NCBI GenBank assembly: GCA_040384565.1 | Contig: JAZKJC010000001.1 | Coordinates: 1,457-65,456, forward strand | Direction: 5' to 3' | Length of the DNA stretch: 64,000 nucleotides | Source of the DNA: Patescibacteria group bacterium | GTDB lineage: Bacteria; Patescibacteriota; Saccharimonadia; Saccharimonadales; JAZKJC01 | Shown here: in pieces, positions 2,840 through 57,971 of the stretch | Position numbering within the stretch: position 1 is the first letter of the stretch | Layout: each line of letters starts with the position of its first letter | Notes under the pieces: model-generated | Database searches by the model: none | Told to the model about the DNA's origin: nothing | What the model saw: the letters and a program-made list of their open reading frames with translations, nothing else | Translations under genes and position numbers: made by a program

Positions 2840-2951
2840 CACCACATTATAAGTTAGGACTTCCACAAACCGGCACATTTCGTCCAAAAAGGCCGAATAT
2901 TTTGCCAGTTCAATACCACATAGTACACTGCTATTAGACTTAAGGACTTAC

Positions 2952-4409
2952 TTGAAAAACACTTGGCGTTTCAGACGAACTACCGTTATAACTATTGGGC
3001 TACTAGCCTTTTTGGGTGGACTTGGTTTTGCGCGGACCAGAATCTGGCTTTCGGGCGCGGTAATAATTACGGTATGCCTGATGTTTTTGGTGACTATTTT
3101 TAAACGGAAGTTACCGGCTATTCTTGGAGTTTTGTTATTTGGCTTTGTACTTGGGTGGTGGAGGGGACAAGTCTTTTTGCAGCGTCTGGAGCCGCTGCAA
3201 CGCCTGCATGGCCAGCATATTGTAGCAACCGTCCAGGCTACAACTGATGCCGTTTATGATGACCGCCAGCAACTGTCTTTTGACGCTAATGATTTACACG
3301 TGAGCGATCCTACAGAAGAGGTATTGCCTGGTGTGATACAAATCGCTGGGCTGGGTCTATCCGCCGTGTATAAGGGTGATATTGTGAGAATAGAGGGGAA
3401 AGTTTACGCTTCACGCGGCAGCCGGATCCTGAGGATGAGTTTTGCGGAGATGGAAATACTGGGTCGTACTGATTCACCGATTGACAGTATTCGCCGCGAG
3501 TTTGCGGCCGGTATGCAGACAGCATTACCGGAGCCTCAGGCGTCCTTTGGACTGGGTCTGCTCATAGGGCAGCGTAACACTCTGCCTGATGACGTAACCG
3601 CGCAGTTATCGGCAGTTGGACTGACACATATCATTGCCGTATCCGGCTATAACCTGACCATTATTATGCGGGCAGTACGGCGTAAGCTCAAAAACCGGTC
3701 TAAATATCAGATTACTGTTTTGTCATTGGTGCTGATGGGATTATTTTTGTTAATGACGGGATTTAGTGCCAGCATAGTCCGGGCAGCAATAGTAAGCGGC
3801 CTGAGCCTGTTAGCCTGGTACTATGGCCGGACATTTCGTCCGTTGCTTCTGCTGGCATTAGCGGCAGTCGTGACGGCTGGCTGGAATCCGTTGTATATAT
3901 GGAGTGATATTGGATGGTATCTGTCATTCCTGGCCTTTTTTGGCGTTTTGATTGTGGCGCCGCTAATACACAAAAGATTGTTTGGAGACAAGGAAGTAAA
4001 AGTCCTGACGGGCACCCTAACAGAAACGTTATGCGCGCTACTAATGACAGTGCCACTGGTCCTGTATATTTTTAATCAAGTATCTTTGGTTGCCGTTCTT
4101 TCCAACTTGCTGATAGTGCCGCTTGTGCCGTTTGCCATGTTGTTCGCGTTGCTGGCGGGGTTGGGTGGCATGCTGTTGCCCATACTGGGAGGCATCATAG
4201 CATTGCCGGCCAGAATCTTACTAACCTATATGCTTGATCTGGTGCAAATTATCTCACGAATCCCTAATGCTTTGGTTGAGCGCGAACTTTCTTTGCTTAG
4301 CATGTTATTTTTGTATTTATGCGTGAGTCTTTTTGTGATAGTTTTATGGCGCCAAGTAGTCAAGAAACATGTTACAATAACAGATGTAAAAGCGGAGAAT
4401 GAAGCGTGA
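2952..4409 (+). CDS. comEC: ComEC/Rec2-family DNA internalization channel (no C-terminal metallo-beta-lactamase domain)
   Basis: 485-aa polytopic membrane ORF with the core motif LSAVGLTHIIAVSGYNLTIIM. TTG start according to the ORF track. Confidence 0.8.
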   Translation: MKNTWRFRRTTVITIGLLAFLGGLGFARTRIWLSGAVIITVCLMFLVTIFKRKLPAILGVLLFGFVLGWWRGQVFLQRLEPLQRLHGQHIVATVQATTDAVYDDRQQLSFDANDLHVSDPTEEVLPGVIQIAGLGLSAVYKGDIVRIEGKVYASRGSRILRMSFAEMEILGRTDSPIDSIRREFAAGMQTALPEPQASFGLGLLIGQRNTLPDDVTAQLSAVGLTHIIAVSGYNLTIIMRAVRRKLKNRSKYQITVLSLVLMGLFLLMTGFSASIVRAAIVSGLSLLAWYYGRTFRPLLLLALAAVVTAGWNPLYIWSDIGWYLSFLAFFGVLIVAPLIHKRLFGDKEVKVLTGTLTETLCALLMTVPLVLYIFNQVSLVAVLSNLLIVPLVPFAMLFALLAGLGGMLLPILGGIIALPARILLTYMLDLVQIISRIPNALVERELSLLSMLFLYLCVSLFVIVLWRQVVKKHVTITDVKAENEA

Positions 4410-41488: not shown

Positions 41489-41565
41489 TGGTACCCCGGA
41501 CAGGATTCGAACCTGTGACCTTAGGCTTAGAAGTCCTCTGCTCTGTCCAGCTGAGCTACCGGGGC
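41489..41565 (-). tRNA. tRNA-Arg (anticodon TCT), CCA encoded
   Basis: Minus strand GCCCCGG...loop CTTCTAA...ACAGG-TTCGAAT-CCTGT-CCGGGGT-A-CCA. The anticodon stem has only 3 Watson-Crick pairs (GAGGA/GCCTA), so the call is slightly uncertain. Confidence 0.75.
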
Positions 41566-41566
41566 T

Positions 41567-41641
41567 TGGTGCGGGATACCAGAGTCGAACTGGTCTCCGT
41601 AGTTTGGAAAACTACTATATTAGCCGATATACGAATCCCGC
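41567..41641 (-). tRNA. tRNA-Gly (anticodon TCC), CCA encoded
   Basis: Minus strand GCGGGAT...GTAGT-TTTCCAA-ACTAC...ACCAG-TTCGACT-CTGGT-ATCCCGC-A-CCA. Separated from tRNA-Arg by 1 nt. Confidence 0.9.
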
Positions 41642-46073: not shown

Positions 46074-46631
46074 ATGAGTAAACGAAGTACAAACTATCCA
46101 TTCCAGCCTCTCGGCAAGCAGCTTAAACAGCTTCGCGTTAAGCGCCAGGAAAGCTTAGCTGAAGTATCAGGTGCGGTGGAAATTGAGCCGGAGGCACTCG
46201 GTGCTATGGAAGACGGAGTTCAGCGTCCCAGCGAAGACATTTTATTTTTGCTTATAAACCACTTTGCAGCTAAAGATGAAGTAGCCAACAAATTATGGGA
46301 ACTAGCAGGCTATAGGCAAGATGCTCAGCCAGAAGAACATGACACAAGTGGCAATAAAAAGCATACTCAGCACAATGTAGTTGCCATGCCTGGTGATCTA
46401 AGAATAGTTTATACAGACATGGTACATGTTATGGTCAACGATTTTGGACTTGTCATGAATTTCATGCAAACTGCCGGGCTAGGTGGTCACCCATTGGCTA
46501 TTGCCAGGGTAGGCATGAGCCGTGAACATGCCCAGAGTGTCCTGGACATACTCCAAAAAACCCTCGCTATGCATCCAAAAACACTACCAGAGGGTAAAAC
46601 TCCTCCTAAGACCCCAGAGTCTAGCAAATAA
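46074..46631 (+). CDS. XRE-type HTH protein with a DUF3467-like C-terminal domain
   Basis: LGKQLKQLRVKRQESLAEVSGAV HTH. C-terminus IVYTDMVHVMVNDFGLVMNFMQ...ARVGMSREHAQSVLDIL. Confidence 0.55.
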   Translation: MSKRSTNYPFQPLGKQLKQLRVKRQESLAEVSGAVEIEPEALGAMEDGVQRPSEDILFLLINHFAAKDEVANKLWELAGYRQDAQPEEHDTSGNKKHTQHNVVAMPGDLRIVYTDMVHVMVNDFGLVMNFMQTAGLGGHPLAIARVGMSREHAQSVLDILQKTLAMHPKTLPEGKTPPKTPESSK

Positions 46632-46634
46632 GAC

Positions 46635-47621
46635 TCATTTAGCTACAGCTTTAGAAGAATTCAAAGGTTTTGAAAGTTTTGACGTTGCCACTTCTTGAGC
46701 ATCGCGGGCAATCAGGTATATAGCACCTGCAAGTATAAGCGCGCCCACGATTTGGGTAAGTGTTAAACTTTGTTCTAAAAATGCGTAACCGACAAAAACC
46801 GCTGAAAGCGGCCAGGCAAGTTCTAGCATCTCAGAGCGTGAAGCCGGAATTCGTTTTAACCCAAAATAATATATGGCCATTGCGACCAAGCCGGCCGAAA
46901 ACGTGATGGCTACGATATATTTAAGCTGCGTGCCCGTAAGTGCAGTCAACGAGCCAGTACTGCCAGACAAAACTACAAACATCAATGCGAAGATAGGTGT
47001 AATACCAAAACGTGCCGCTGTAATATGCAGCGATGATGTGTCTTTGAGGGCATATTTAGAAAAAGCCGTAGATGTGCCCCAGCAAGCAGCCGCGCCAAGC
47101 GCAAACAAAGCCGCCACAAGCGTGCCATTACCTGTTGAAAAATTAACCGTAAATCCTGGGAAAGATACAATATAAGCGCCCACCATTGCTACGGCTGCTA
47201 AGCCAAAGAACTTTTTAGTAAGTGGTTCGTGGAGTAATAGACCAGCCGTAATAACTGCGAAGATTGGATTGAGCAGCTGCAACAAAACGACAACAGAGAA
47301 AGGAATATACTGGATTTTCCCCAGAGCTGCGGTATATAGAATCGTTCCAAGCGCACCAGACAGGAAAGAAACTCCTGTGATTGCCACCCATTGTTTACGG
47401 GTCAGTTTTTTAAAGGCTTTTAAAGATGAAAGTATGATTGGAGTGATTAGTGCCAACCCAAAAATGTGCTCCCAAAACACCACGACAGATGGCGGTAGGC
47501 TATATAAATTACGCCTAAGGACTCCGTCCAGACTCCATAACAATGCTGCTATGATTACAGCCCCGGAGCCATATTTAATATACTTCAAAACGATTTCCCC
47601 TTTCTGTTGCGTTAGCAACAT
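46635..47621 (-). CDS. DMT-superfamily (EamA-like) transporter
   Basis: 328 aa, 10 predicted TM helices, two EamA-like halves. Confidence 0.8.
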   Translation of the reverse strand: MLLTQQKGEIVLKYIKYGSGAVIIAALLWSLDGVLRRNLYSLPPSVVVFWEHIFGLALITPIILSSLKAFKKLTRKQWVAITGVSFLSGALGTILYTAALGKIQYIPFSVVVLLQLLNPIFAVITAGLLLHEPLTKKFFGLAAVAMVGAYIVSFPGFTVNFSTGNGTLVAALFALGAAACWGTSTAFSKYALKDTSSLHITAARFGITPIFALMFVVLSGSTGSLTALTGTQLKYIVAITFSAGLVAMAIYYFGLKRIPASRSEMLELAWPLSAVFVGYAFLEQSLTLTQIVGALILAGAIYLIARDAQEVATSKLSKPLNSSKAVAK

Positions 47622-47773
47622 CCGCCGTTAAAGCGAATCCCGACTATACGGTCGGCCCATGAGTCTCACATGGTCATCCACTGCCAAAGGGCAATGGTCG
47701 ACGGCTATACGTCCGATTGGCGAATTTCACGCCACCCAAGGAATTAATTTGTGAATGCATTTATAGTACCACA
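47622..47773 (-). promoter_or_regulatory. putative promoter (TGgTACTAT) plus a roughly 135-nt structured 5' leader of the DMT transporter gene
   Basis: The minus-strand RNA contains hairpins UGGCG-UGAAAU-CGCCA, GACG-UAUAGC-CGUC, CCAUUGCC-CUUU-GGCAGUGG, CCAUG-UGAGACU-CAUGG and CCGAC-CGUAUA-GUCGG. Confidence 0.45.
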
Positions 47774-47813
47774 ACCAAAAACATTTCATTAGAATCGGTT
47801 GAATAAAATTTAA

Positions 47814-48407
47814 CTATCTGGGTGAGGCGTTGTACGCACTGGTGCTTTTGCTGCGATCATTAAAATAATCCTTATAGTAATTACTAAGTTCTGGACTTAT
47901 TGATCCAAGCTCTGATCCAATAAAAGAATGAGATTCATTGAAGTAGTCTTCAGGAGGATAATCTTTTAATTTCTTGATAATATTTGCTGCTTGCGGTTTG
48001 TCTAGTTCGGCTTTTAATAATGGTTGCAGCATTTCCTTTTGGGCCGGTTTTAGGCGGCTAAAAGCTACATGCAGCATTTCATGGGCAGCCGTGACGGTAC
48101 TCTGGTTGTATTCTTCGTTATTAATATATTGGAGTATGTAAATATTCCTACCCTCAGCACAACCAAGTTTTTCAATATCACAGTAGCTGTCCAGATCTTG
48201 TTGTCCCACCAACTGTGGCGAAAAACGAAAAAACAACTGCTTTCCCTTATTGCTCATCCCTGCATCATCGGCTAGTTTTGAGATTTCTTGGGGTGGTGAA
48301 TATTGCTGTGAATGCCACCAATCGCCTATTAAACGAGCATTCCTAACTGCGAAAAAGCCAGTCATCAATACTAACAATAAAATGAAGAGGTCAATCTTCC
48401 GGCGCAT
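47814..48407 (-). CDS. membrane-anchored protein with an HExxH (HEMLH) metallopeptidase-like motif
   Basis: N-terminal TM helix. TVTAAHEMLHVAF. 197 aa. Confidence 0.5.
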   Translation of the reverse strand: MRRKIDLFILLLVLMTGFFAVRNARLIGDWWHSQQYSPPQEISKLADDAGMSNKGKQLFFRFSPQLVGQQDLDSYCDIEKLGCAEGRNIYILQYINNEEYNQSTVTAAHEMLHVAFSRLKPAQKEMLQPLLKAELDKPQAANIIKKLKDYPPEDYFNESHSFIGSELGSISPELSNYYKDYFNDRSKSTSAYNASPR

Positions 48408-48421
48408 ACGCTCAACAGGCC

Positions 48422-49042
48422 CTAATAGGCTTGGATATTCTTTAGTAAATCCGCGGTGTCATTTAGCTCAGGACATGCTTTCTCAAGATAAATAAATAGT
48501 TCTTTTCCATTATTTAGACGAACGGTATGTTTCAACTCGTTTTGCGTGTTATCTGGAGGAAACTTATTGCTTACAAGCTTAACCCCTCTTGAGCAGGCTT
48601 GAAGCTTCGGCACGGCTTCAAATAAATGTTCAACGTCTCTTACCATATACAGGGTGTGAGTACCTCTAACGGGGTATGTGCTTATGCTTAGCTCTGCCTG
48701 TGAGTTTGTCACATCACTATTATCTATTAAATATGTTAAGGGCAAAGCTATATCGGGATTGGGCAAATATAGCCTGCTTTCAGGAAAATAGACATCACCT
48801 GTACGAGGCTCTACCGGCGCGTCTTTTTTTAGCCCTCTTACAGCCAACAATGTCAGTTCTCTTACATTCACAAGTCCTGCCTGATTTGCTACATCATCAT
48901 AGTAGTGGACTTTTGGTATTACATAGTAGAAACTTCCAAAAATAATCAAACCTGCTGCAGTAACAAATACGGCTATCTTCTTTTTGTCCCAACTTTTGTT
49001 TTTCTTTAATGGTTTTTTCATATTAATCCTTAACTTATACAT
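48422..49042 (-). CDS. membrane-anchored protein of unknown function
   Basis: 206 aa, basic N-terminus plus one TM helix. Confidence 0.5.
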   Translation of the reverse strand: MYKLRINMKKPLKKNKSWDKKKIAVFVTAAGLIIFGSFYYVIPKVHYYDDVANQAGLVNVRELTLLAVRGLKKDAPVEPRTGDVYFPESRLYLPNPDIALPLTYLIDNSDVTNSQAELSISTYPVRGTHTLYMVRDVEHLFEAVPKLQACSRGVKLVSNKFPPDNTQNELKHTVRLNNGKELFIYLEKACPELNDTADLLKNIQAY

Positions 49043-49124
49043 TGGATTATACCGAAATTATCAAAAAAGAATATAAACACAATCGTAATGATACGGCACT
49101 CTCGTCAAAACAATAATCGAGCAT

Positions 49125-49490
49125 CTAAAGTTCAACTCCCGGAGTTAAGAGCAGAAGAGCTACCAGTAAATATAAATAAAAGAAAAGCAGAGTAGTAAAA
49201 GTTATCAGTATTTTGAAGCGAAATGATTTCCTGCTATTTATTATGGCCCAAATGGTAATAAAAAATGGGATAAAAACAGCAAAAATGATAGCAGGAGTAA
49301 ACAATTGATCTAAATATACCAACCCGAACTGCTTTTTGGAATGGCCACTCAATATTGGGTAAAAATTTTCTACTAAGGATCCAACTACGAGACTGACTGC
49401 TGCACATGTTGCAATTTGAGTACGTTGCTCCACTCCATAACGCAAGGCTGTAAATGCCACTATTGCTGCAAACAGAGAAACTAACCACAT
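49125..49490 (-). CDS. membrane protein of unknown function
   Basis: 121 aa with 4 hydrophobic helices. Confidence 0.5.
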   Translation of the reverse strand: MWLVSLFAAIVAFTALRYGVEQRTQIATCAAVSLVVGSLVENFYPILSGHSKKQFGLVYLDQLFTPAIIFAVFIPFFITIWAIINSRKSFRFKILITFTTLLFFYLYLLVALLLLTPGVEL

Positions 49491-49561
49491 GTATAAGATT
49501 ATACTTCAAAATGCTTATTCCTGTGTGGCTCGGTACGAGGTTAGGACAAAATTCAACCATG

Positions 49562-49590
49562 TTGACGCTATGACGTCATAGCGTTATAAT
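49562..49590 (+). promoter_or_regulatory. relBE-1 promoter with embedded operator palindrome
   Basis: TTGACG (49562-49567), 17-nt spacer, TATAAT (49585-49590). A 16-bp perfect palindrome GCTATGACGTCATAGC lies at 49567-49582. The ATG is 7 nt after the -10. Confidence 0.7.
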
Positions 49591-49597
49591 GTAGAAT

Positions 49598-49837
49598 ATG
49601 AGCACTCTAAGTGAAAAGACTACAATATATCTCGATCCTACTGTTAAGAAGTTTCTACAGCATAAAGCCATTGCTGAGGGTCGTTCACTCTCTGATGTAA
49701 TCAATGAACAGTTCGCGGATATGCTAGAAGATCTTAGCGACATAAAAGAAATAGAAAAACGGCGTGGTGAGCAAACGATACCGTTTGAAAAAGTTCTCAA
49801 AGATCTGGGCTTAACTTATGACCAGCTACGAAGTTGA
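49598..49837 (+). CDS. relB: RHH-type antitoxin (RelB/CopG-like)
   Basis: 79 aa. KTTIYLDPTVKKFLQHKAIAEGRSLSDVI ribbon-helix-helix. Overlaps the toxin gene. Confidence 0.7.
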   Translation: MSTLSEKTTIYLDPTVKKFLQHKAIAEGRSLSDVINEQFADMLEDLSDIKEIEKRRGEQTIPFEKVLKDLGLTYDQLRS

Positions 49838-50078
49838 ATTTGTTAAAAGTGCCCAAAAAGAGCTAAACAAGCTACCCCAACAACTTAGCCTACGAATAGC
49901 TAAAGCGATATACAAATTGAGTGCAGATCCAAGGAAAGGTAACGTACGACCTATGGTTGGGACAAAAAGCTGGCGGCTTCGCGTTGGCGACTATCGAGTC
50001 GTTTACGACATTCTAGATAACAAACTGATTATCCTAGTAATCCGTGTTCGACATCGCAAAGAAGCGTATAGAGATTAA
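49818..50078 (+). CDS. relE: RelE/ParE-family toxin
   Basis: 86 aa. YEVEFVKSAQKELNKLP...WRLRVGDYRVVYDI...LVIRVRHRKEAY. Confidence 0.8.
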   Translation: MTSYEVEFVKSAQKELNKLPQQLSLRIAKAIYKLSADPRKGNVRPMVGTKSWRLRVGDYRVVYDILDNKLIILVIRVRHRKEAYRD

Positions 50079-50185
50079 TATCGAAAACATAGATTAGAAA
50101 TAACCTCTGTGTTACATAGAATTGGTGCAGCAACATTGCTGAGGTCAGAACGACGCTACAGTCTGTTCTAGTCAAACGCTCTTAC

Positions 50186-50410
50186 TTATATGCCGAAAAT
50201 CATAATACCAATCATTGCAATGAGTATGTAGACCCCAAAAGCTATAAGTGCAGAAGCAACGACTGCTGATATGATTGAAGACAAATGTTTATCGGACAAA
50301 TTTCTATTTTTATTAACCCAAAGTGCTAGAGAGCCAATAAATGCAGTCCCAAAAACTATCCAAAATAAAAGTATATTGCCCGCTTCATCGTGCACCAAGT
50401 AATCAATCAC
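50186..50410 (-). CDS. small membrane protein
   Basis: 74 aa with two TM helices. Confidence 0.45.
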   Translation of the reverse strand: MIDYLVHDEAGNILLFWIVFGTAFIGSLALWVNKNRNLSDKHLSSIISAVVASALIAFGVYILIAMIGIMIFGI

Positions 50411-50455
50411 ACTTTCATCATAGCACAGGGTTATTAGTAGTTTATTTCTAAAATA

Positions 50456-50702
50456 TGGTGCACCCGGTAGGATTCGAACCTACGACCTTTGGTACCGGAA
50501 ACCAACGCCCCGCCTGTCTGGCCAATTAACAATATGATGGTGGGACCGGCAGGACTTGAACCTGCGACCTTCAGTTTCGGAAACTGACGTTCTATCCAAC
50601 TGAACTACGATCCCTTGTTTGGGTATAGCACCACATTTAGAGTCAATGCCTCATTTTGAAGGACAGACGGGCGGACAGGTCTATCCACTGAGCTACGGGT
50701 GC
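50456..50702 (-). tRNA. interrupted (split) tRNA-Arg (anticodon CCG): 5' part 50702-50680, 3' part 50508-50456, 171-nt insert in the D-stem
   Basis: GCACCCGTAGCTCAGTGGATAGA plus GCGTTGGTTTCCGGTACCAAAGGTCGTAGGTTCGAATCCTACCGGGTGCACCA joins into a flawless 76-nt cloverleaf. Neither part folds as a tRNA alone. Confidence 0.6.
50538..50614 (-). tRNA. tRNA-Arg (anticodon CCG), CCA encoded, nested inside the insert of the split tRNA
   Basis: Minus strand GGGATCG-TA-GTTC-AGTTGGATA-GAAC-G-TCAGT-TTCCGAA-ACTGA-AGGTC-GCAGG-TTCAAGT-CCTGC-CGGTCCC-A-CCA. Confidence 0.9.
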
Positions 50703-50916
50703 GTATGTTTGAGCATAACATAGAAGTTACATTACTATTCTGTATGATTAATAGACCTCTCCCACCACCCAGCCTGTTGGCGAGAGCGGATTCCAGGAGT
50801 GAGCTAGTTCTTTTTTGGTTCAAATAGTAGCCAAAGCTACTTTTTGAGACATAAAAATGCTGGATTATCCTGTAATATGGTGTCGGTAAGGATGAGTGGC
50901 GTGAGAGGTCTAAAGT

Positions 50917-56076: not shown

Positions 56077-56928
56077 TTACGGAGTTACGAATAGGGATTT
56101 AAGTGTCTCTTTAATCGGATCGTCATACGGATCAACCTTGAGCCATAGCTTTTCAGTAGGTTTGGTGGCTGCCACAAACTGTTCGCAGGTAGTGGTAGCA
56201 CACACGACCTCATAGACGCCGTATTCGTCTAGCATGCGCTTCATGTGGCGGTTGAGTTTCTTCTGTGTTCTGTCGGTTTCGCAAATAGCTAAAACGGCTG
56301 GAAAGTCAGTATCTTCTAACCAATCCCCGCTCTCGCTGAACTTTAGGTAATTGCTAGCTTTACGAATACTCACAAAAAATGGCTTGGTGCTGTCCCATAT
56401 GTCCAGGAAATAACCATGTGGTTGCTCTTGGCCACTTACAGGCAATGTCAGGTACAAATCAGGCGTCCAGGTTGGGTAGTTGTTGTACTGCACCATGTAA
56501 CTCTTGGTATAGACGCTGAGCTTATCTCCATATAGGGATTTCAGCTGTAGAATCGTTTCAGTAACTTTTAAACAATGATCTAAGAAATCCTGGGATACTC
56601 GCTTGTTCTTGTAAAGTGACCGAATAGCCCATGCATTGGTAGATTTTGGTTTCAATTCCTCGAGTTTGCGAGCACCTTTTGGTGTTAGGTAGTACTCGGC
56701 CGGTCGGGCTGGTAGCTTGTAAGACTTATCGTAGCGTTTACTAATGAAGCCTTGTTCTTCAAGTATTCTCATCTTGGTATAGATAACGTTAAGACTGTCT
56801 CTACGTAAATAGCTACCGACTTGCTGACAGGTACTGAACCGAACGTTGTATAGCCAATTCAGCACGCTTACTTGCTCAGTATTCAATGGTCTACGGTACT
56901 TAACTGTTGCTTTACTTATAGTTTGCAT
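56077..56928 (-). CDS. replication-relaxation (Replic_Relax)-like protein
   Basis: N-terminal winged-helix-like LNTEQVSVLNWLYNVRFSTCQQVGSYL...MRILEEQGFISKRY is typical of the family. 283 aa. Confidence 0.5.
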   Translation of the reverse strand: MQTISKATVKYRRPLNTEQVSVLNWLYNVRFSTCQQVGSYLRRDSLNVIYTKMRILEEQGFISKRYDKSYKLPARPAEYYLTPKGARKLEELKPKSTNAWAIRSLYKNKRVSQDFLDHCLKVTETILQLKSLYGDKLSVYTKSYMVQYNNYPTWTPDLYLTLPVSGQEQPHGYFLDIWDSTKPFFVSIRKASNYLKFSESGDWLEDTDFPAVLAICETDRTQKKLNRHMKRMLDEYGVYEVVCATTTCEQFVAATKPTEKLWLKVDPYDDPIKETLKSLFVTP

Positions 56929-57122: not shown

Positions 57123-57971
57123 TTAGGACGAAAGTAGTCGTTTGAGCACTAGGTTGAACATAGGTATGTCATTTTTACGATTGCTGTAGCGGAAAGCATA
57201 TTCATTTGCATAGTGTTGCAAGTAGGCAGGATCACAGTGCCGGTAGACACCGTACATGCCTCGCTTAAACTGGCTCCAGAAGTTTTCAACATTCTGGGTG
57301 TGTACTCTGCCAACTACAAACTTCTTCAGGCTATGATTAATGGTCTCGTGCTGGTAGCCTCTGCGTCCAAGCATTCTATATGCACCATGCTCGTCACTAT
57401 AGATGGTGGCTGCTTGGCCAATATTCTTTTGGATTTCCGGAATCAGAATGCGTACACCAGAGCTTTTAACGTGCTTAATCCTAGCCCTGCCGCCACGTTC
57501 AACCATACCAAAAATTACTTGGCTGTTGTGGGGCTTTGCGGTGCTCCGTCTTTGTGGATTGGGATGCATGTAGGCTTCGTCTACTTCAACGTCATTATTG
57601 AGTAATTCATTGTCGTCTCCCATCATGAGACGAACTTGTTTGAAGATCCGCCAAGCAGTTTTGTAGGTGACGCCACTGATACGTTGGAATTGCAGAGCAG
57701 ACATGCCGGAACGGGTATTTGTCATGAAGAAGATAGCTAAGAACCAAGTTCGTAAGTCAGTCGTAGATTTATGAAATGGGGTGTTTGCTAATGGGTAGAT
57801 CTGAGCGCCACACTGGCATTGGTAGGCTGGTCGGTTTGGTAGCTTATGAAAGCCATCTATGAGGCCACAGGTCATACAGGGCTTGGCGCTGTAGTGCATT
57901 TGCCATAAGTAGTCTAAACAGTGGTCACTGGTGGGAAACTGTTCGTTAAACTGCGTCATGGTGAACTTCAT
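57123..57971 (-). mobile_element. IS1595-family (ISXO2-like) DDE transposase gene; IS ends not identified
   Basis: N-terminal zinc ribbon (CMTCG...CQCG), VEVDEAYM, IYSDEHGAY, HTQNVENFWSQFKRGMYGVY. 282 aa. Confidence 0.8.

Follow-up and report, generated by a model that had tools for sequence, protein, structure and literature searches.

The tRNA introns of Patescibacteria are all group I introns located in the anticodon loop, the positions known for tRNA group I introns range from 33/34 to 36/37, and six group II introns in tRNA genes have been recorded across bacteria, one of them in the D-loop (Nakagawa et al., 2026; PMC13011429). The initial annotation of the DNA studied here held that bacterial tRNA introns are group I introns of the anticodon loop, which is essentially right, although rare group II introns also exist (PMC13011429). 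The rRNA genes of the CPR contain many short, ORF-less insertions that are not introns and are probably intervening sequences of the RNase III type (PMC11270868). In archaea, tRNA genes are disrupted by the integration of mobile elements, with heterogeneity in the population (Sugahara et al., 2012; PMC3293823).

Here we describe a locus from a MAG of an uncultured patescibacterium (CPR) in which a tRNA-Arg(CCG) gene is split in its D-stem by a short insert that holds a second, complete tRNA-Arg(CCG). It lies in a window of 64 kb, by which we mean the whole stretch of DNA analysed. A literature search found no report of a bacterial tRNA whose D-stem is interrupted by a segment holding a second tRNA, in agreement with the earlier statement that a D-stem interruption with a nested tRNA had not been described.

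Anatomy of the locus

The features of the locus, in window coordinates, are the following:

50680..50702, minus strand: 5' fragment of the outer tRNA, nt 1-23 (acceptor 5' strand, D-stem 5' strand, D-loop and first 2 nt of the D-stem 3' strand)
50456..50508, minus strand: 3' fragment of the outer tRNA, nt 24-76 (last 2 nt of the D-stem, anticodon arm with G37, variable loop, T arm, acceptor 3' strand and CCA)
50509..50679, minus strand: insert of 171 bp that separates nt 23 from nt 24 of the outer tRNA, without any target-site duplication
50661..50675, minus strand: 5' arm of the terminal repeat (the 'clamp'), beginning 4 nt inside the insert, with 13/15 positions pairing with 50509-50523
50509..50523, minus strand: 3' arm of the terminal repeat, ending on the last base of the insert
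50538..50614, minus strand: inner tRNA-Arg(CCG), 77 nt, complete, with CCA encoded and A37 in the anticodon loop (ARAGORN; 71.9 bits with the Rfam tRNA model)
50615..50635, minus strand: extended -10-like box TGcTATACC and CAAACA leader of the inner tRNA, directly upstream of it
50706..50720, minus strand: extended -10-like box TGtTATGCT and CAAACA leader of the outer tRNA, upstream of its 5' fragment

Both outer halves were re-read from the window and have the coordinates and sequences given for them in the initial annotation. On the minus strand, the 23 nt of 50702-50680 (GCACCCGTAGCTCAGTGGATAGA) and the 53 nt of 50508-50456 (GCGTTGGTTTCCGGTACCAAAGGTCGTAGGTTCGAATCCTACCGGGTGCACCA) join into exactly 76 nt, none being lost and none repeated at the insertion site, and an allele without the insert would read CCAACGC followed directly by TCTATCCACTGAGC across the join. 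The canonical cloverleaf that had been proposed for the joined halves is accepted by ARAGORN as a tRNA-Arg(CCG), with 7/7 acceptor pairs, a D-stem of 4 bp, anticodon and T stems of 5 bp each and an encoded CCA. The 5' fragment is the sole match within 3 mismatches in the window, where 0 are expected by chance, and it is almost identical to the corresponding part of the genes for tRNA-Arg(CCG) in Saccharibacteria. The claim that neither half folds alone is not borne out by annotation tools for the 3' half, on which ARAGORN places a poor 69-nt 'tRNA-Arg' (50460-50528) and Rfam a partial tRNA match of 30.6 bits. Standard annotation therefore finds two tRNA-Arg(CCG) genes here, one of which is the spurious 69-nt call. 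By our own reading of the sequences, the outer and the inner tRNA both carry the arginine identity elements A20, C35 and A73. The nested arrangement is real, unusual and beyond chance.

The second complete tRNA-Arg(CCG) described inside the insert was recovered with both ARAGORN and the Rfam tRNA model. It is slightly closer to genes from outside the CPR (85-86% identity) than to those of Saccharibacteria (83%). The possibility that it is a copy of another arginine tRNA in the window was rejected after comparison. What the insert contains besides the tRNA occurs nowhere else in the 64-kb window and in none of the fetched loci.

A -10-like box upstream of the inner tRNA had been placed at 50621-50635; the box (TGTGGTGCTATAC) is present, but its real span is 50635-50623. 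An extended -10-like box with leader, TGYTATRCYCAAACA, precedes both tRNAs and ends 1-3 nt before the tRNA start. The inner and outer upstream stretches match at 12/15 positions at equal distance from their tRNAs, for which a post-hoc binomial estimate at this anchored position gives approximately 2e-4; treated as a free local alignment the likeness is not significant, being reached by 300/2000 shuffles. A strict sigma-70 scan called no promoter on the minus strand at the locus, the inner box included. The inner tRNA is presumably expressed. Since CGG accounts for 13% of the arginine codons in the genes of the window, the cell must have a tRNA that reads it, which the inner gene provides; a tRNA-Arg(UCG) gene lies 2 kb from the locus.

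The ends of the insert (CCGCCCGTCTG ... CAGACAGGCGG) form an imperfect inverted repeat. Positions 5-19 of the insert pair with positions 157-171 (50675-50661 with 50523-50509) through 12 Watson-Crick pairs and 1 G-U pair, with 2 mismatches, and at the DNA level 12/15 positions of the repeat are identical. The predicted duplex of -22.1 kcal/mol is matched by 5/5000 random 171-nt segments of the window and by 16/5000 composition-matched shuffles of the termini, so that the complementarity of the termini, which had been reported with the same pair counts, is confirmed and lies far above chance by duplex energy. The termini contain 74-80% G+C versus 14-37% in the non-tRNA interior of the insert.

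Origin of the insert

We regard it as probable that a small cassette with inverted repeats at its ends was inserted recently and precisely, breaking the resident gene and supplying a self-promoted replacement for it. Insertional inactivation with functional replacement had been listed first among the possible explanations, and it is the one favoured by the exactness of the insertion, the completeness of the inner gene with its own box, the native character of the outer gene and the end of an independent contig at the junction (see below).

The native character of the outer gene comes from a comparison with relatives. A degenerate 42-nt pattern that fits both tRNAs was scanned against GTDB genomes and JGI metagenomes, giving 17 and 10 loci, respectively, and each of these 27 loci holds an intact, uninterrupted gene. 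They are mostly of the outer type and come chiefly from Saccharibacteria, which indicates that the outer gene is the ordinary CPR tRNA-Arg(CCG) with G37; the inner anticodon arm is found in 0/27. The inner sequence type is likewise absent from the scans of GTDB genomes, JGI metagenomes and IMG/VR, and the paired termini of the insert have no match in IMG/VR. Exact and degenerate scans with the outer 3' half, the inner tRNA and the termini returned only intact outer-like genes of other lineages, and phage and plasmid collections gave generic tRNA similarity only, the best phage match being a tRNA-Arg(CCT).

The neighbouring genes are bacterial and encode MurB, a Mur ligase, an EamA transporter, a serine hydroxymethyltransferase (SHMT) and a NUDIX protein. 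The NUDIX protein is 100% identical to one from a MAG labelled 'Patescibacteria group bacterium', and among its named relatives the closest is a protein of Candidatus Moranbacteria with 56% identity. In a search for orthologous loci through this gene, the closest homologues had at most 58% identity and their loci were non-syntenic and without a tRNA.

Several observations were made in passing around the locus. A probable ParDE toxin-antitoxin pair (49598-50078, plus strand), in which a 79-aa ORF overlaps the gene of a ParE-family toxin, lies immediately downstream of the split tRNA; toxin-antitoxin pairs often mark islands beside tRNA genes. Upstream of the EamA-family transporter gene (46635-47621, minus strand) there is a full-length match to the FMN riboswitch (RF00050; 47623-47744, minus strand) with 60.3 bits and an E value of 3.6e-11, just below the gathering score of 66.2, which suggests that the transporter may be riboflavin-regulated and RibN-like. 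Further away, tRNA-Gly(TCC) and tRNA-Arg(TCT) (41489-41641, minus strand) stand one base apart, so that they must be co-transcribed and precisely cut apart.

Other tRNA-Arg(CCG) genes have odd copies at their sides. In the Saccharibacteria MAG contig CAZMXN010000021.1 (L011; approximately 351-100, minus strand), the intact gene is immediately preceded by a decayed copy resembling tRNA-Arg(CCG), in whose T-loop sits a hairpin-rich segment of approximately 170 nt with GCAA loops; this segment matches no Rfam family. Two JGI contigs (L035, positions 2916-3010, and, with an identical sequence, L034) carry a 3' fragment of this tRNA approximately 100 nt downstream of an intact tRNA-Arg(CCG) of the Saccharibacteria type, and this fragment, whose T-loop is broken by approximately 65 nt, looks like an integration scar. 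The Saccharimonadia MAG contig JALQUD010000085.1 (L014) has a 21-nt exact copy of the tRNA-Arg(CCG) 5' end (2203-2223) that stops in the D-loop, 112 nt upstream of the intact gene (2315-2391), and the spacer holds an inverted D-arm-like stretch, CCAGCTCTATCC. On the minus strand of the JGI contig Ga0316209_1000875 (L038), the last 26 nt of a tRNA-Arg(CCG) together with approximately 100 nt downstream form a tandem direct repeat that resembles the attL/attR pair of an integrated or excised element. The partial or insert-bearing copies beside the intact gene in L011, L014 and L034/L035 are suggestive, as sequence comparisons, of the tRNA-Arg(CCG) gene being a rearrangement hot spot in the phylum, that is, in the CPR.

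How the insert arrived was approached through its ends and its surroundings. The seamless junctions argue against a classical DDE transposon. They are as an element of the IS200/IS605 type would give, but the ends of the insert fold no better than shuffles on either strand, and this absence of subterminal hairpins argues against an element of that type. No direct repeat of the tRNA 3' end occurs in the window within 3 mismatches and no integrase was found among the 30 ORFs scanned near the locus; likewise, no transposase, integrase or homing endonuclease linked to the cassette was found. A mobile-element patch lies 6 kb off and consists of an IS1595/ISXO2-family DDE transposase (57123-57971, minus strand) and a Replic_Relax domain protein (56077-56928, minus strand). 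The IS1595 element was considered as the parent of the cassette and rejected because the ends are unrelated, the surroundings of the element being unlike the termini of the insert. A weak inverted likeness between 50751-50766 and the 5' junction is left out of the argument, since by our own estimate approximately 0.4 such matches are expected by chance. The earlier suggestion of a tRNA-carrying mobile cassette is thus possible and unproven: the inverted termini are significant, but there is no target duplication, the window holds no second copy and the ends of IS1595 are unrelated to them.

These observations bear also on a one-off, non-mobile origin, in which a fragment from a related lineage would have been captured at a double-strand break, or an interrupted allele imported by homologous recombination. 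The tRNA-Arg(CCG) gene on the fragment would have lain within a natural inverted repeat, and dedicated mobility machinery would have played no part. Such an origin would agree with the single copy, the lack of a target duplication and of a linked transposase, the resemblance of the inner promoter and leader to those of the host, and an abrupt SNP boundary that a second strain shows upstream of the locus. On the other hand, the blunt and loss-free capture, precisely at one position between two bases, of a fragment that happens to end in inverted repeats would be an unlikely accident, and the scans of GTDB and JGI revealed no donor locus. We consider a one-off event unlikely.

Fate of the outer gene at the RNA level

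The absence of decay in the outer halves raises a different reading, in which the outer gene works although interrupted. The insert would be an intervening sequence or intron, and the terminal helix would unite the outer halves into a two-piece or ligated tRNA. Either RNase P together with 3' processing would remove the inner tRNA or RNase III would cleave the helix, and any ligation would be carried out by an unknown activity. Intact halves and a significant terminal helix are equally expected of a functional interrupted gene as of an inactivated one.

The whole precursor of 247 nt was folded thermodynamically. In its ensemble the outer acceptor stem has a pairing probability of approximately 1, in line with a functional interrupted gene, while the outer D-stem has a probability of approximately 0. 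The prediction pairs the outer D-loop (GUGGAUA) with the beginning of the insert (UGUCCGC) as a hairpin of 7 bp (50688-50671, minus strand). This hairpin competes with the D-stem and with the clamp register, and the terminal helix takes a shifted register of 9 bp. The structure of minimum free energy is 25 kcal/mol more stable than the nested double cloverleaf. Since cloverleaves are frequently not the most stable structure, the fold is only a weak argument against function. Of the earlier proposal that the helix clamps the outer halves together, the significance of the helix stands; the predicted fold does not favour the D-stem plus clamp and shifts the register of the helix.

Signals of known splicing systems were also sought. 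Rfam searches, at the gathering score on the window and at E<=10 on 50350-50850, detected no group I or group II intron and no small ribozyme family. The insertion site, between nt 23 and 24, falls within the D-stem, and the exon before it ends in A, whereas group I introns of tRNA genes follow a U. Archaeal splice sites sit in two bulges of approximately 3 nt with a 4-bp helix between them; such a bulge-helix-bulge, with 4/4 central pairs, was found in 0/100 geometries, which covered bulges of 2-4 nt in both topologies and at both junctions, and a Pfam scan of 30 ORFs of the window detected no splicing endonuclease (EndA) or ligase. The third option of the initial annotation, a spliced or two-piece tRNA, thus finds no support, considering that a ribozyme match and a bulge-helix-bulge are absent and that the fold does not favour the D-stem plus clamp.

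Taken together, a functional interrupted gene agrees with the significance and GC-richness of the terminal helix, with the undecayed halves and with the presence of many short (<200 bp), ORF-less, non-intron insertions in CPR rRNA genes (PMC11270868). An alternative D-stem that uses the last two G of the insert would, judging from the sequence, shift the insertion to the D-loop. Against it stand, besides the lack of intron, self-cleaving ribozyme and bulge-helix-bulge signals and the predicted fold, several points on tRNA maturation and on the locus itself. Cuts by RNase P and RNase Z would be expected to leave the outer halves with tails of 65 nt and 29 nt, and without exon ends that could be ligated. 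From the established structure of tRNA, an extra helix in the D-stem would upset the core of the molecule. The outer tRNA is dispensable given a second one that shares its anticodon, and the locus appears polymorphic and not conserved. We judge a working interrupted gene decidedly unlikely and take the outer gene to be most probably inactive.

A specific form of this idea would be a new kind of bacterial tRNA intervening element, inserted in the D-arm, with the embedded tRNA as a processing handle and the GC-rich helix holding the halves, such that this single locus would provide two species of tRNA-Arg(CCG), of which one would be two-piece or spliced. This we hold to be very unlikely. In a weaker version, the insert may belong to a class of selfish cassettes whose insertion is made harmless by carrying a replacement for the broken gene. 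If the outer gene still worked, it would be the first case in bacteria of a tRNA with a ribozyme-free interruption away from the anticodon loop, and a bacterial counterpart of the archaeal split tRNAs. The Patescibacteria are the phylum with the biology most like that of the DPANN archaea.

Strain variation, mode of insertion and comparison with known systems

One Logan contig, SRR26324625_52608, of 8720 nt, matches 46125-50508 of the window with 100% identity and stops exactly at 50508, the base of the outer 3' half that adjoins the insert. De Bruijn contigs end where two successors exist, and the end at 50508 is explained directly by a coexisting allele that lacks the insert or has another sequence at that place. 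That a contig should end at exactly this base by chance is unlikely, which suggests that the insertion is polymorphic in the natural population. Two caveats apply to this argument: the end of another contig (L002), at 50902, coincides with no variant, and a diverged copy of the insert would also break a contig at the first difference.

A second strain (L001; GCA_040384025.1, contig JAWVHG010063538.1) has SNPs at 50868, 50867 and 50857 and its contig ends at 50839. These 3 SNPs fall within 12 bp, approximately 190-200 bp upstream of the insert, and the strain is otherwise identical over approximately 2.5-2.6 kb. The cluster looks like a recombination boundary, possibly the edge of a divergent tract that extends over the tRNA locus. 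No independent contig spanning either junction was found; on the downstream side one contig comes near the insert, on the upstream side two. The uninterrupted allele itself was not observed; a protein search and exact look-ups that used spurious ORFs over the locus gave no match. We infer from the contig end that such an allele coexists with the interrupted one.

The same data could be turned towards an assembly artefact, in which the MAG contig would have taken a wrong path through entangled strain variants in the assembly graph, and no genome would contain the nested arrangement. Neither junction is crossed by an independent contig, the only independent contig at the junction stops exactly at 50508, and several strains coexist in the samples. 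Nevertheless, the assembler needs real k-mers over both junctions, a wrong path that left the gene after nt 23 and re-entered it at nt 24 without loss or gain is very hard to envisage, and the inner tRNA and the outer 3' part, with approximately 75% identity over 53 nt, have no long exact words in common. An artefact is therefore highly improbable.

Returning to the recent insertion with replacement, the event can be pictured as follows. A cassette of 171 bp with GC-rich, imperfect inverted repeats would have entered between nt 23 and 24, in the 3' strand of the D-stem, bringing a complete tRNA-Arg(CCG) with its own extended -10-like box. The resident gene would have been left as two undecayed fragments that most likely yield no working tRNA, and the decoding of CGG would have passed to the inner tRNA, aided by tRNA-Arg(UCG). 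The inner tRNA would be freed by RNase P and 3' processing, either out of a transcript of its own or out of one that starts at the outer promoter and reads through. The event would be recent and is probably still polymorphic in the natural population. Possible routes of entry include the homologous import of an interrupted allele, a seamless element (HUH-type or homing-like) and the capture of a fragment at a break.

If the locus is a fresh knockout with a spare, it would represent a natural 'self-compensating' insertion, whose damage is offset by a full replacement gene, in contrast to splicing, as in introns and inteins, and to the partial restoration of the target by integrases. An insertional knockout of this sort would add tRNA genes to the stable-RNA genes of Patescibacteria that bear odd short insertions.

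Among the systems already described, the bacterial tRNA group I introns, which include those of Patescibacteria, share with this locus a precise insertion into a tRNA gene with no target duplication. They differ from it in lying in the anticodon loop and having a ribozyme core, whereas the present insert is in the D-stem, measures 171 nt, gives no Rfam signal and follows an exon that ends in A. The non-canonical introns and split tRNAs of archaea such as Nanoarchaeum equitans and Caldivirga maquilingensis also break the gene outside the anticodon loop and have GC-rich complements adjoining the halves; here, however, the host is a bacterium, the bulge-helix-bulge is absent and a complete tRNA is nested.

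The rRNA intervening sequences, which are removed by RNase III and left unligated, are likewise short ORF-less insertions in a stable-RNA gene, with helix-forming termini, as predicted here, and a sporadic distribution at strain level, as seems to be the case here. Those sequences extend the tip of a helix, whereas in this case one strand of a 4-bp tRNA stem is broken and the insert holds a gene. With MITEs the insert has in common its small size, the lack of coding capacity for a transposase and, though imperfect here (12/15), the terminal inverted repeats. It differs from them in lacking a target-site duplication, in a repeat that is offset by 4 nt at one end and in carrying a tRNA gene as cargo; moreover, the window contains just one copy, and an autonomous element to match it was not found.

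In comparison with the integration of integrase-borne and other mobile elements into tRNA genes, the insert brings a whole gene and not a partial copy such as the piece of tRNA in an integrase attP, comprises only 171 bp and interrupts the D-stem, where those elements use the anticodon loop, the T-loop or the 3' end; the direct repeats of tRNA sequence and the integrase of integrase-mediated events are also absent here. In both cases, a tRNA gene is the target, its function is kept, or here would be kept, by the incoming tRNA sequence, the old fragments stay in place and the population is, or in the present case appears to be, heterogeneous.
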